10,556 bases of DNA from Candidatus Odinarchaeota archaeon (GTDB lineage: Archaea > Asgardarchaeota > Odinarchaeia > Odinarchaeales > Odinarchaeaceae). Positions 586-4,399 of the stretch are shown here, piece after piece (positions within the stretch are counted from its first letter, which is position 1; every line of letters begins with the position of its first letter). The notes beneath the pieces were generated by a model, which was not told the origin of the DNA, did no database searches, and saw only the letters and a list, made by a program, of their open reading frames with translations. The stretch covers positions 1 through 10,556 of the forward strand of contig JAWBON010000038.1 of NCBI GenBank assembly GCA_038826135.1, given 5' to 3'. Position numbers and translations under genes: made by a program.

Positions 586-2688
586 ATGAGCATTCTGATA
601 ATCACTGAGAAACCTTCAGCTTGTTTAAGAATCGCCAACGCTCTAGACGACGGTAACACTTTAAAAAAGTTTGAGGAAGGGGGCGTTACATACTACCGTG
701 TTAAACATAATGGGGAACAATTGATCATAGTATCCGCTTTAGGTCATCTCTACACGGTTACTCAGAGAGGGGAAGGATGGGTTTACCCGGTTTTTAACAC
801 TACGTGGGTTCCCTCCTATAAGGTTAGTAAATCAGCTAGGAATACTAAAGGCTTCATAGAGGTTATTAGGAAGCTAGCGTCTGAAGCAGCGGTTTTTATA
901 AACGCATGTGACTTTGACTTGGAAGGAAGCCTTATAGGATACTCTGTTATTAAATACGCTTGCGGTGGGGGGGCTCTCAACTCGGCTAAGAGAATGAAGT
1001 TTTCAACTCTCACTAAGGGTGAGTTATTATCCGCTTTTGAAGACATGTCGGATGGTTTAGATCTTAACATGGTTGAAGCAGGGCAGACCAGGCATGAAGT
1101 CGACTGGTTGTTCGGAATAAACTTGAGCAGAGCTTTAACTCTTGCTTTAAAAAACACCAGTGGATTGTATAAAGCGTTGAGCACAGGTAGGGTTCAAGGC
1201 CCGACACTGTCATTCATATATCATCGAGAAAAGGAAATTCAATCGTTTGTACCAGTACCATACTGGGTTATTAACGCCGAGATCATAATAGATGAAACCG
1301 CATACCAGTTAGAATACTCTGAGAGTAGAATAAACGTTAAATCTGAGGCTGAGAGAACTCTCAAAGAGTGTTTAGGTAAACCCGCGCTTATAACCGATAT
1401 TAAAACCACAGAGTACCGGCAGAAACCCCCTGTTCCATTCGACATCGGCACTCTCCAGGTTGAAGCCTATAAGTTCTTCGGGTTCACACCCAGGCGTACT
1501 CTGAACATCGCTGAAAGACTTTATCTTGACGCTTTAATATCTTATCCTAGAACTAGTAGCCAGAAAATACCGGAATCCATAAACGTTATAGAAATATTGA
1601 AGGGAATGACTCAGCAGCAGGCTTATCGGAAAATAGCTGAAGAAATTCTCGGTCAAGACAGGATAGTCCCTAATCAGGGTGAGAAAGATGACCCTGCTCA
1701 TCCTGCTATTCATGTAACCGGTAATAAGCCTGAAAGAGAACTTGACGCGGATGAGAGGAAACTTTATGATTTAATCGCTAAAAGATTCTTCGCCTTATTC
1801 GGGGAACCCGCCTTAAAGGAGAGTGTGAAGGCTGAAGTTCACATAGGTCCTCATGTTTTCTATCTTAAAGGGCGTCAGATAAAATCACTGGGGTGGCTTC
1901 GCTTCTACGAGCCTTACTTTAAACAGGAAGATATTATACTACCCTCTTTATCTATCGGTCAACAGCTTGAAACTCCGCGGATGACGGTTGAGGAAAAATA
2001 TACAACTCCACCGCCTAGGTATAATCCTAGTTCTCTCCTTAAACTTATGGAGAAAGAGAACCTTGGGACTAAGGCTACTCGAGCTGATATAATAGACACT
2101 TTGATAAAACGCGGTTTTGTTACAAGCCAGCCTATGGAGATGACTGACCTGGGTTTTTCAATAATAGATGTTTTAGAGAAATATTCCCCAGGTGTTTTAT
2201 CTGTGAAGTTAACTCGTGATATTGAAGAAGACCTGGATAATATTCAAAAAAACAAGAAAACTAGGAAAGATGTTATAATAGAGTCGATTACCGCATTAAA
2301 GCCTATTCTAGAAGAGTTTAGAATGAGGGAGAACGTTATCGGTACAGATCTGGGGGCGGCGCTTAAAAAACTATGGAAGAAACAAAACTATATCGGTGTA
2401 TGCCCTAAATGCGGGACAGGCGAGTTAACAGTTATCTACTCCAGGTCATCTTATAAAAGATTTATAGGATGTTCTAATTATCGCAGCGGTTCATGTAATG
2501 CCAGTTTTCCACTGCCTCAAAAAGGGCGGGTTGAATCCACAGATAAGAAGTGTGAGCATTGCGGTTACCCTGTGATAAAAGTGTTCATGCCCGGTAGGAG
2601 GCCATGGAATATGTGTGTTAACTGGCTTCAATGCCCGGGTAGAAAGACTTCAAATGAAGTTAAACACGAGATCGGGGGCAGCTCATAA
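586..2688 (+). CDS. topA: Type IA DNA topoisomerase, archaeal TopA/Topo III type, 700 aa
   Basis: Toprim motifs ITEKPSA and ACDFDLEG, plus GRVQ, catalytic-Tyr region LISYPRT, HPAI and GTKATRA. Two C-terminal Cys4 zinc ribbons: CPKC...CSNY...C and CEHC...CVNWLQC. No intein-sized insertion. Confidence 0.96.
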   Translation: MSILIITEKPSACLRIANALDDGNTLKKFEEGGVTYYRVKHNGEQLIIVSALGHLYTVTQRGEGWVYPVFNTTWVPSYKVSKSARNTKGFIEVIRKLASEAAVFINACDFDLEGSLIGYSVIKYACGGGALNSAKRMKFSTLTKGELLSAFEDMSDGLDLNMVEAGQTRHEVDWLFGINLSRALTLALKNTSGLYKALSTGRVQGPTLSFIYHREKEIQSFVPVPYWVINAEIIIDETAYQLEYSESRINVKSEAERTLKECLGKPALITDIKTTEYRQKPPVPFDIGTLQVEAYKFFGFTPRRTLNIAERLYLDALISYPRTSSQKIPESINVIEILKGMTQQQAYRKIAEEILGQDRIVPNQGEKDDPAHPAIHVTGNKPERELDADERKLYDLIAKRFFALFGEPALKESVKAEVHIGPHVFYLKGRQIKSLGWLRFYEPYFKQEDIILPSLSIGQQLETPRMTVEEKYTTPPPRYNPSSLLKLMEKENLGTKATRADIIDTLIKRGFVTSQPMEMTDLGFSIIDVLEKYSPGVLSVKLTRDIEEDLDNIQKNKKTRKDVIIESITALKPILEEFRMRENVIGTDLGAALKKLWKKQNYIGVCPKCGTGELTVIYSRSSYKRFIGCSNYRSGSCNASFPLPQKGRVESTDKKCEHCGYPVIKVFMPGRRPWNMCVNWLQCPGRKTSNEVKHEIGGSS

Positions 2689-2912
2689 TGTCATGTCCTA
2701 TATGTGATAAGGGTGAGGGCGAGTTCTGTGAGAACCACGCTTCCGCATATATTAGCGTTGTTGAAGCCTTTAAAAAATGGCAGACAGCCACCCCAATCCG
2801 CTGGGAAGATTATCTTAAGAGAATTATAGATAACGAGTATACTGGTAAATGGGCTAGGGAGGTTGCGGAATACCTGTTACGTAAAGGCTCACCACCCAGC
2901 GGTGTTACATAA
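2688..2912 (+). CDS. Small uncharacterised protein, 74 aa, with an N-terminal CxxC-x7-CxxH putative zinc finger and a Trp-rich helical C-terminal part
   Basis: ATG overlaps the topA stop (TAATG at 2686-2690). SD-like GGGGG at 2674-2678. C3-x2-C6-x7-C14-x2-H17, and W31, W39, W55 in amphipathic-helix patterns. Confidence 0.8.
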   Translation: MSCPICDKGEGEFCENHASAYISVVEAFKKWQTATPIRWEDYLKRIIDNEYTGKWAREVAEYLLRKGSPPSGVT

Positions 2913-3633
2913 TCACACCATCTATAAACGCTCTTATCCTATCACTTGAAGGCTTACCGAATATTACTTGAGCGTTCCCCTCCTCCAGTATTTCACCGTT
3001 TAGAATGAATCCTACACGACCATCCAGTCTTTTAGCCTGAGACATGTTGTGAGTGGCTATAATTATAGTTGTCCCCATCTCTTTATTCATATCTTTAATT
3101 AAAGCTTCTATTAAAGCAACGTTAGGAGGGTCTAGGTTAGCGGTAGGCTCGTCGAGTAGAAGTAACTCCGGGTCTAAAACCATACATCTTGCTAAAGCTG
3201 TTCTCTGAGCTTCACCCCCCGATAATAGTGTAGCATTCTGTTTTTCAAACTCTGATAATCCAACCTTCAATAAGGCTTCTTGAACTTTTCTCCTTATAGT
3301 GTTTGATTGAACACCGCGGAGGCTAAGCCCATAAGCCACATTGTCAAAAACGCTCATATTAAATAATGTGACTTTTTGATGCAGTAACGCCATTCTTCTT
3401 CTTAAGTTAACCTGTTGGCTTTTATTTAAATTCCCTGTTCGAACACCGTTGAAGATTAGTTCCCCGCTTGAAGGTTCCTCTAAAAGATCGATTATTCTAA
3501 GGAGCGTGCTCTTGCCAGCTCCGCTTGGCCCTATTAAGGTGTAAATATCCCCCTTATTAATGTTTAAATTAACGTTTCTTAGGATTGTTTTCCCCTCATA
3601 CACTTTTGTTAAATTTTTAACTTCTAGTAGCAT
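2905..3633 (-). CDS. tupC: Tungstate ABC transporter ATP-binding subunit
   Basis: Walker A GPSGAGKS, signature LSGGEAQR, Walker B LLLLDEPTANLD, H-loop IATHN. SD AGGTG upstream. Directly downstream of tupA and tupB. Confidence 0.9.
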   Translation of the reverse strand: MLLEVKNLTKVYEGKTILRNVNLNINKGDIYTLIGPSGAGKSTLLRIIDLLEEPSSGELIFNGVRTGNLNKSQQVNLRRRMALLHQKVTLFNMSVFDNVAYGLSLRGVQSNTIRRKVQEALLKVGLSEFEKQNATLLSGGEAQRTALARCMVLDPELLLLDEPTANLDPPNVALIEALIKDMNKEMGTTIIIATHNMSQAKRLDGRVGFILNGEILEEGNAQVIFGKPSSDRIRAFIDGVIM

Positions 3634-3652: not shown

Positions 3653-4399
3653 TTACTTCACCGGTATCGGTCTTATTGACATTATTCTTCTACCTGCAAG
3701 CTTTTTAGAGCGTAATTGTAAACGTGTTAAAACTACACTGTTAATTATGAAAGCTATTATAATCAGAATTAATCCTAAGGCTAAGGCTTGACCGTAATTG
3801 CCTTGACTTGTCTGTAAAACTATGTCTGTGGTCATAACCCTAGTGAATCCTTCTATATTTCCGCCCAGCATCATGCTGGCCCCCACCTCTGAAATAGACT
3901 GGCCGAAGCCTACAGCTACGCCGCTGAGAATGCTGACTCTGGCCTCTCTAACTATAAGAGCCCATGTTTGACTGCGTGTCGCTCCAAGAGATTTAGCGGT
4001 TTCAATAACTGAGATATCTATTGAACTTACCCCCGCCAAAGTCACACCAGCTATTATAGGTGTGGCTATAATTATCTGGCCGATCATTATCGCTGTAGGA
4101 GTGTACAATAAGGATAGTGCTCCTAGGGGGCCTGTTCTTGAAATTAATATGAAGACAGCAAGGCCTACTACTACGGGTGGTAATCCCATTAAAGTGTTTA
4201 TCAGACTGATAATCATATTCTTTCCGAAAAAATTATTCATACCTATTATAACGCCTACGGGTACTCCGAGCATTGAGGCGAAAGCTACAGCTAGACCTGA
4301 AACTCTCAGTGAAAGTAAGATGACCTGCCATGTGGCAGGGTCGCCTGTGAACAATAATATGAACGCGTTTACAATGCCGTCAATTATAGGATCCGTCAT
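3653..4399 (-). CDS. tupB: Tungstate ABC transporter permease
   Basis: TupB-typical NTLMGLPPVVVGL, EAA loop ETAKSLGA, SISEVGASMMLGGNI and TRVMTT. I prefer the ATG at 4399 over the track's GTG at 4408 because AGGTGG (SD) lies 5 nt upstream of that ATG. Confidence 0.92.
   Translation of the reverse strand: MTDPIIDGIVNAFILLFTGDPATWQVILLSLRVSGLAVAFASMLGVPVGVIIGMNNFFGKNMIISLINTLMGLPPVVVGLAVFILISRTGPLGALSLLYTPTAIMIGQIIIATPIIAGVTLAGVSSIDISVIETAKSLGATRSQTWALIVREARVSILSGVAVGFGQSISEVGASMMLGGNIEGFTRVMTTDIVLQTSQGNYGQALALGLILIIIAFIINSVVLTRLQLRSKKLAGRRIMSIRPIPVK

Follow-up and report, generated by a model that had tools for sequence, protein, structure and literature searches.

Domain V of topoisomerase III from Sulfolobus (Saccharolobus) solfataricus (Sso), residues 594-668 of the enzyme, is a loop pinned by a zinc ion via C602, C605, C615 and H618, followed by three helices, and it packs onto the hinge of domain II (PDB 6K8N/6K8O; bioRxiv 10.1101/706986). 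It was shown that the Sso enzyme without domain V, or with the CCCH residues mutated, no longer decatenates kinetoplast DNA (kDNA) and has lowered relaxation and single-stranded DNA (ssDNA) binding, the latter dropping about five-fold on loss of the domain (10.1101/706986). Here we analyze a stretch of 10,556 nucleotides from a Candidatus Odinarchaeota archaeon (contig JAWBON010000038.1; the whole stretch is called the window), in which topA, the gene of an archaeal type IA topoisomerase, is followed by a small gene for a 74 amino acid zinc-finger protein, P0001. Based on homology, fold and conservation, P0001 is a stand-alone homologue of Sso domain V, and it is probably a subunit of the window's TopA.

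Other type IA enzymes are also known to work with, or to be built from, separate polypeptides. RMI1 with Top3-alpha and TDRD3 with Top3-beta are examples of a separate partner that sits at or near the type IA hinge and tunes gate dynamics and decatenation (PDB 4CHT, 5GVE; 10.1101/706986), and in Nanoarchaeum equitans the reverse gyrase consists of two polypeptides and Topo III of NEQ045 and NEQ324 (PMC8185306, PMC10969213). Small domain-V-like proteins were already noted in the S3 text of the Sso study, in further phyla too, and it was asked there whether they bind a type IA enzyme (10.1101/706986); P0001 belongs to this set. The words "adjacent", "operon", "downstream" and "neighbour" do not appear in the main text of that study, and three reviews of archaeal or type IA topoisomerases, one of 2021 and two of 2024, do not mention the small domain-V-like proteins.

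The small gene and the elements of its product are located as follows:

2688-2912, plus strand: gene of P0001, the 74 amino acid stand-alone domain-V-like zinc-finger protein, from open reading frame (ORF) calling, with the stop codon at 2910-2912
2686-2690, plus strand: TAATG, in which the topA stop overlaps the start of the small gene, whose frame is +2 (-1) to that of topA
2674-2678, plus strand: Shine-Dalgarno (SD)-like GGGGG of the P0001 gene, 9 nt 5' of the ATG and within the final topA codons
2694-2738, plus strand: codons of the Cys3His zinc site (C3 at 2694-2696, C6 at 2703-2705, C14 at 2727-2729, H17 at 2736-2738)
2730-2789, plus strand: helix 1, residues 15-34, which carries A20, V24, A27 and W31 and is predicted to be the main helix in docking (AlphaFold2, AF2)
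2802-2831, plus strand: helix 2, residues 39-48, in which W39 and L43 are conserved (AF2)
2847-2885, plus strand: helix 3, residues 54-66 (AF2)

The P0001 N-terminus reads MSCPICDKGEGEFCENH, which gives the C3-x2-C6-x7-C14-x2-H17 spacing. The protein has three Trp residues (W31, W39 and W55) and a TGKWAREV segment at residues 52-59. The last A is common to the topA TAA stop (2686-2688) and the small-gene ATG (2688-2690), and in relatives of the gene purine runs of the GGAGG or GAGG type are found at the position of the window's GGGGG. An earlier note, which was made from the letters of this DNA, had described a 74 amino acid ORF that starts inside the topA stop codon with its own SD-like GGGGG, a C-x2-C-x7-C-x2-H motif with three Trp and TGKWAREV, a helical region after the motif and two zinc ribbons at the end of TopA. 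All of these were found again, the helical region as three helices in the AF2 model and the ribbons as two sets of four cysteines. The start coordinate of 2674 in that note is the position of the SD-like run, and the ORF itself begins at 2688. The note could not assign the protein to any named family, a view that must be revised, as P0001 is the stand-alone form of the characterized domain V of crenarchaeal topoisomerase III.

The assignment is supported by sequence and by predicted structure. P0001 residues 2-65 align to residues 601-666 of 6k8n_A (E 6.9e-4), and in this alignment the ligands pair one-to-one, so that C3, C6, C14 and H17 match the Sso zinc ligands C602, C605, C615 and H618. 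A further match (E 3.2e-8) is to NF004438, the NCBIfam model of the crenarchaeal "topoisomerase I", where P0001 covers positions 605-670 out of 677, and another is to the C-terminus of a fused topoisomerase, P0155 (38% identity, E 6e-14). The AF2 model of P0001 (pLDDT 91.5) has helices at residues 15-34, 39-48 and 54-66 and no strands. Its best fold match in the PDB is 6k8n_B/6k8o_A, with a TM score of 0.74, a root mean square deviation of 1.7 Å over 65 columns and a probability of 1.00, and with the second-best match at TM <=0.46 this is its sole convincing neighbour. Gamma-glutamyl cyclotransferase (E 0.07) and other weak sequence matches in the PDB covered the protein partially and had no fold support. 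A search of P0001 against Pfam gave no match at E<=0.01; with no Pfam match, three Cys and one His, and a helical modelled fold, P0001 does not belong to the C4 zinc ribbon family PF01396.

The likeness extends to the residues that hold domain V on the Sso enzyme. With a numbering offset of 601 between Sso and P0001, the Sso interface residues A621, L625, A628, W632, G654, K655, Y656 and V657 correspond to A20, V24, A27, W31, G53, K54, W55 and A56. The first four lie on helix 1, which is the counterpart of Sso helix alpha19, and the T52-G53-K54-W55-A56 turn that precedes helix 3, equivalent to Sso G654-K655-Y656-V657, is predicted to contact the hinge too. Conservation was counted in an alignment of 80 homologues. 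C3 and H17 are invariant (80/80), C6 and C14 are each kept in 79/80, and four interface counterparts rank among the best-conserved positions of the family, namely A20 (76/80), W31 (79/80), G53 (79/80) and W55 (74/80); W39 and L43 are also kept in at least 90% of the homologues. P0001 and Sso domain V are therefore alike in their Cys3His site (C-x2-C-x7/9-C-x2-H), with the Cys residues in the loop and the His early in helix 1, in their fold of three antiparallel helices, conserved hinge-contact residues and predicted docking site, and they differ in that P0001 is a separate 74 amino acid polypeptide whereas domain V is the C-terminal domain of an enzyme. P0001 is not covalently joined to a topoisomerase core, since its ORF has an ATG of its own and lies in a different frame from topA, and hence it is a stand-alone homologue and not a domain of the enzyme.

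Among clusters formed at 50% identity, an exhaustive HMMER search with P0001 gave 215 matches at E<=1e-3, 22 of them at E<=1e-10, and nearly all are 50-110 amino acids long. One apparent long relative, P0054 (870 amino acids), was discarded as a repeat-protein artefact without any matched stretch. Among 301 genomes sampled from the same phylum, 144 have exactly one copy of the small gene, and all 144 matches sit in open frames shorter than 250 amino acids. The ORF at 2688-2912 is thus more than a chance reading frame, given the 215 matching clusters and the single-copy genomes. The closed genome of the same genus (G002, Candidatus Odinarchaeum yellowstonii) encodes a 72%-identical protein that is annotated as hypothetical protein OdinLCB4_003015. 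Across Asgard and Bathyarchaeia genomes the split form is an intact ORF at 30-70% identity with invariant ligands.

The presumed partner is encoded directly upstream:

586-2688, plus strand: topA, encoding the 700 amino acid archaeal type IA topoisomerase P0002 (TIGR01057 topA_arch, 704 bits, cut-off 458)
2395-2634, plus strand: C-terminal pair of 4-Cys zinc ribbons of TopA, residues 604-683 (C606/C609/C629/C637 and C656/C659/C677/C683)

TopA contains the Toprim and Topoisom_bac domains. Across 38 TopA sequences its ribbon cysteines show no or almost no variation, and the first ribbon gives a weak match to PF01396. No second PF01131 gene was found in the genome of the window, a 1.26-Mb metagenome-assembled genome that is 93% complete, and TopA is the sole type IA enzyme found in it; on the same ground reverse gyrase was set aside as an alternative partner of the small protein.

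In other archaea the two proteins are found as one. A word-indexed search with the single P0001 sequence gave no longer or fused relatives, and an 80-sequence profile search that was restricted to longer proteins found two fused topA-domain V proteins, P0155 (657 amino acids) and P0156 (673 amino acids). In both, the topoisomerase core is followed directly by domain V; they match PF01131 and PF01751 only and have no PF01396 ribbons. NF004438 (PRK05776, DNA topoisomerase I) is a whole-protein equivalog model with a cut-off of 793 bits, which P0155 (907 bits) and P0156 (835 bits) exceed. P0001 (32 bits) and the window's TopA (691 bits) each stay below this cut-off, in the case of TopA because it has no domain V tail and carries two zinc ribbons instead, and jointly the two proteins cover the profile. 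The window's TopA thus keeps two 4-Cys ribbons, whereas Sso topoisomerase III and the fused crenarchaeal enzymes are without them.

The linkage of the two genes was examined in 100 loci. Relatives in the phylum supplied 20 of them, and the other 80 came from GTDB species genomes that were scanned with the pattern WA[KR]EVA[ER][YH]L, which was taken from an alignment of six sequences; due to the pattern used, the 80 scanned loci are mostly from Bathyarchaeia. The small gene has topA as its immediate neighbour in 99 of the loci, and in the remaining one it lies at the edge of the fetched stretch, at a contig end. It is co-directional with and downstream of topA in 97 loci and convergent in two, both of family f13. 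A start could be assigned in 95 of the 97 co-directional loci; in 87 of these the small gene overlaps topA, in 6 more it starts within 5 nt, and in none (0/95) is it in the topA frame. Overlaps of 23 nt (34 loci) and 4 nt (22 loci) were counted, along with overlaps of 1 nt and 20 nt (7 loci each).

Several loci show further features of this junction. In the 34 Bathyarchaeia loci with the 23-nt overlap (among L021-L100, with the junction near 4001-4021) the start codon of the small gene, in most cases TTG, lies 23 nt ahead of the topA stop, which means that the seven final codons of TopA and the opening codons of the small protein, including its first CxxC, are read in two frames. At L064:3980-4010 and L080:3980-4010, also from Bathyarchaeia, a CTG takes the place of the TTG or ATG of relatives; the GGAGG-type SD is still present, but the open frame of the small gene has no ATG, GTG or TTG at all, which suggests that these two genes initiate at CTG. 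The convergent genes of f13 (L018:1501-1719 in G027 and L020:1501-1716 in G017) lie on the opposite strand about 90-100 nt from topA and, being convergent, are adjacent to it but cannot be co-translated with it. At L109:2696-3404 (G244:C1:2240195-2240903) the small gene stands behind a 165-codon frame whose match to TopA is confined to the ribbons (residues 589-687), and the TopA core (profile positions 1-544) is found on that contig too, at a distance of about 570 kb; either a topA that is rearranged or in three pieces or an assembly error could account for this.

Presence and absence of the two genes were also compared over 30 families of the phylum, with topA_arch scored as a strong match. 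Both genes are present in 12 of the 30 families and neither in 16, among them three large families (0/68, 0/19 and 0/21), and in no family was the small gene found alone. Of five genomes sampled from families that lack the small gene, four encode a more divergent type IA enzyme that falls below the TIGR01057 cut-off. These enzymes, from G013, G033, G032 and G043 (L101-L104; Asgard families f9, with 0/68, f15 and f16, in which topA_arch and the small gene are both missing), are 712-910 amino acids long and score about 307-361 bits.

A model of the complex between TopA and P0001 was predicted from a 38-row TopA alignment and the 80-row alignment of the small protein, in three runs and with three controls. 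Its ipSAE is 0.76, versus 0.00 for the best of the three controls; the ipSAE mark was calibrated on 80 solved complexes, of which 58 reached it, and on 110 mismatched pairs, of which 2 did. The three runs share at least 96% of the contacts and the partner pLDDT is at least 83. On the small protein the modelled interface consists of residues 16, 19-20, 23-24, 26-27, 30-31, 33-35, 46, 49 and 51-56, and on TopA of residues 216, 218-226, 250-253 and 472-475, which fall in three patches:

1231-1263, plus strand: TopA hinge residues 216-226 (KEIQSFVPVPY), the predicted docking site in the complex model, for which the Sso hinge equivalent is 218-226
1333-1344, plus strand: TopA residues 250-253 in domain II, the second predicted contact patch in the complex model
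1999-2010, plus strand: TopA residues 472-475 (YTTP) in the second hinge strand, the third predicted contact patch in the complex model

This surface is that of the published Sso domain II/V interface. In the Sso enzyme I250 touches domain V, and the hinge takes in residues 471-480 (10.1101/706986). Within the docking site of the window's TopA, F221, V222, P223, P225 and Y226 are invariant or nearly so. The predicted complex shows that the window proteins are compatible with an interface of the Sso type; this is a likeness and not a demonstration of binding.

Taken with the homology, these results make it probable that P0001 is a separately made domain V that acts as a subunit of the window's TopA, a reading in which the binding, the zinc and the effect on catalysis are inferred. 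The earlier note had raised the idea of an accessory subunit or regulator, had proposed to look for conserved adjacency to topA, for fusions and for a complex model with TopA, and had named a lack of conservation of the Cys/His ligands as evidence against it. The idea gains support from the sequences and from the model: the adjacency holds in 99/100 loci of Asgard and Bathyarchaeia genomes, fusions are found in Sso domain V, P0155 and P0156, each ligand is present in 79 or all of the 80 homologues and the predicted complex passes its controls.

A mechanism that fits these data can be proposed. One message would carry topA and the small gene, and the start of the small gene would be coupled to topA termination; as its ATG overlaps the topA stop, both proteins would be made together. 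The small protein would then fold around one zinc ion held by C3, C6, C14 and H17, and helix 1 (with A20, V24, A27 and W31) together with the T52-G53-K54-W55-A56 turn may dock on the hydrophobic TopA hinge, on a surface formed by S220-F221-V222-P223-V224-P225-Y226 and residues 250-253 and 472-475. Such docking would restore in trans the domain II/V interface of Sulfolobus topoisomerase III. By analogy with the Sso enzyme, this subunit would strengthen DNA binding and control how the gate opens and closes. This control would let duplex or catenated DNA pass, and the subunit may thus be required for decatenation and improve relaxation.

Several observations weigh against this reading. In genus g14 (G019 and G038) the small gene and topA are on different contigs, the sole clear loss of linkage that was seen. 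In two of the 30 families, each represented by a single genome, topA_arch is present without a detectable small gene. Sso R635, which makes a hydrogen bond to the body of domain II, has A34 as its counterpart in P0001, and this position is mostly Ala in the family. The two extra ribbons of TopA mean that its C-terminal architecture differs from that of Sso, and the need for a domain V could differ as well. The homologous intramolecular interface is present in the PDB (6K8N), and for this reason the complex model may in part reproduce that solved structure. Moreover, the biochemistry of domain V is known for the fused Sso enzyme (10.1101/706986).

The unlinked g14 copies are at L106:2997-3230 (G019:C7) and at G038:C219:13377-13568, and their neighbours are not topA. 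One possible extension of the subunit reading is that a dissociable domain V serves as a switch, so that its level, its zinc or redox state or its release toggles the sole type IA enzyme between a relaxing mode and a decatenating or segregation mode. Independent regulation of this kind would fit the unlinked gene of g14 and the convergent gene of f13, and if true the protein would be an Asgard counterpart of RMI1 licensing eukaryotic Top3-alpha, but we regard the switch as unlikely.

Another hypothesis is that P0001 acts independently of TopA and does not bind it, as a zinc-finger protein for nucleic acids such as a chromatin or repair factor or a small regulator of topA, with no more than a common origin with domain V and an operon shared with topA. 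The g14 and f13 genes, unlinked and convergent, can be expressed on their own, and the roughly five-fold lower ssDNA binding of the Sso enzyme without domain V means that the fold may touch DNA. Yet the best-conserved residues besides the ligands, A20, W31, G53 and W55, are those of the Sso hinge contacts and form no obvious DNA-binding surface. The strict co-occurrence at the family level, with no family that has the small gene alone, the single copy per genome and a complex model that passes its controls also speak for a TopA partner, and we find a free factor improbable.

The position of the small gene also raises the option that a programmed -1 (+2) frameshift near the GGGGG joins the ORF to TopA to give a single Sulfolobus-like polypeptide. 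Most small ORFs overlap the topA end, the frame of the window's ORF is open for 8 codons 5' of the ATG, and the co-directional ORFs lie outside the topA frame in 95 of 97 loci and never in frame 0, the other two having no assignable start; two Bathyarchaeia loci are without ATG, GTG or TTG at the start position. On the other hand, the window has a plain ATG with an SD-like run at normal spacing, the upstream motif of relatives is GGAGG- or GAGG-like with no conserved slippery heptamer, and where the overlap is 1 or 4 nt there is hardly any room for a shift site. In f13 the gene is on the opposite strand and in g14 on another contig, so there the protein must be produced independently. A frameshift product is therefore highly improbable.

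That the ORF is a decaying, functionless remnant of a former C-terminal domain, left after the kind of gene break that the existence of fused forms makes conceivable, has practically nothing left to recommend it, as it is already contradicted by the intact split ORF with invariant ligands at 30-70% identity across Asgard and Bathyarchaeia, and as the two zinc ribbons between the TopA core and the stop do not fit a simple break of the fused architecture.

The subunit reading can also be set beside the other systems with separate polypeptides. RMI1 and TDRD3 have an OB (oligonucleotide/oligosaccharide-binding) fold whose insertion loop extends to the gate of the topoisomerase, whereas P0001 is modelled as a zinc loop and three helices without strands, which is a different kind of structure. 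Chains of RMI1 or TDRD3 are not among the 50 fold matches listed for the P0001 model. The likeness is that of a separately encoded type IA partner, an analogy of role and not homology. N. equitans is alike in that a type IA topoisomerase is made from separately encoded pieces, but there the splits fall between or within major domains and the pieces are at separate loci, whereas here a small accessory domain alone is detached and its gene overlaps topA.

At its 3' end (2905-2912) the small gene overlaps by 8 nt a convergent gene for an ABC-transporter ATPase (2905-3633, minus strand), the first of a binding-protein-dependent transporter cluster that extends to 5378.

The fold and the role of domain V were already known from the fused enzyme, and in this sense the finding is solid and unsurprising to a specialist. 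This analysis adds the near-universal overlap with topA, the co-occurrence at the family level, the conservation of the interface residues, the complex model and the Odinarchaeal example. The annotation of such genes, which are called "hypothetical protein" or are possibly missed where the start codon is unusual, is also corrected. Type IA topoisomerases untangle chromosomes in all cells. Bacterial and eukaryotic ones have a "decatenation loop" that is missing from the archaeal enzymes, and the Sulfolobus domain V is the only clue to how the latter decatenate. If Asgard archaea and Bathyarchaeia make domain V as a subunit of its own that is co-translated, its role would become testable by mixing the two proteins, which is harder with the fused enzyme.

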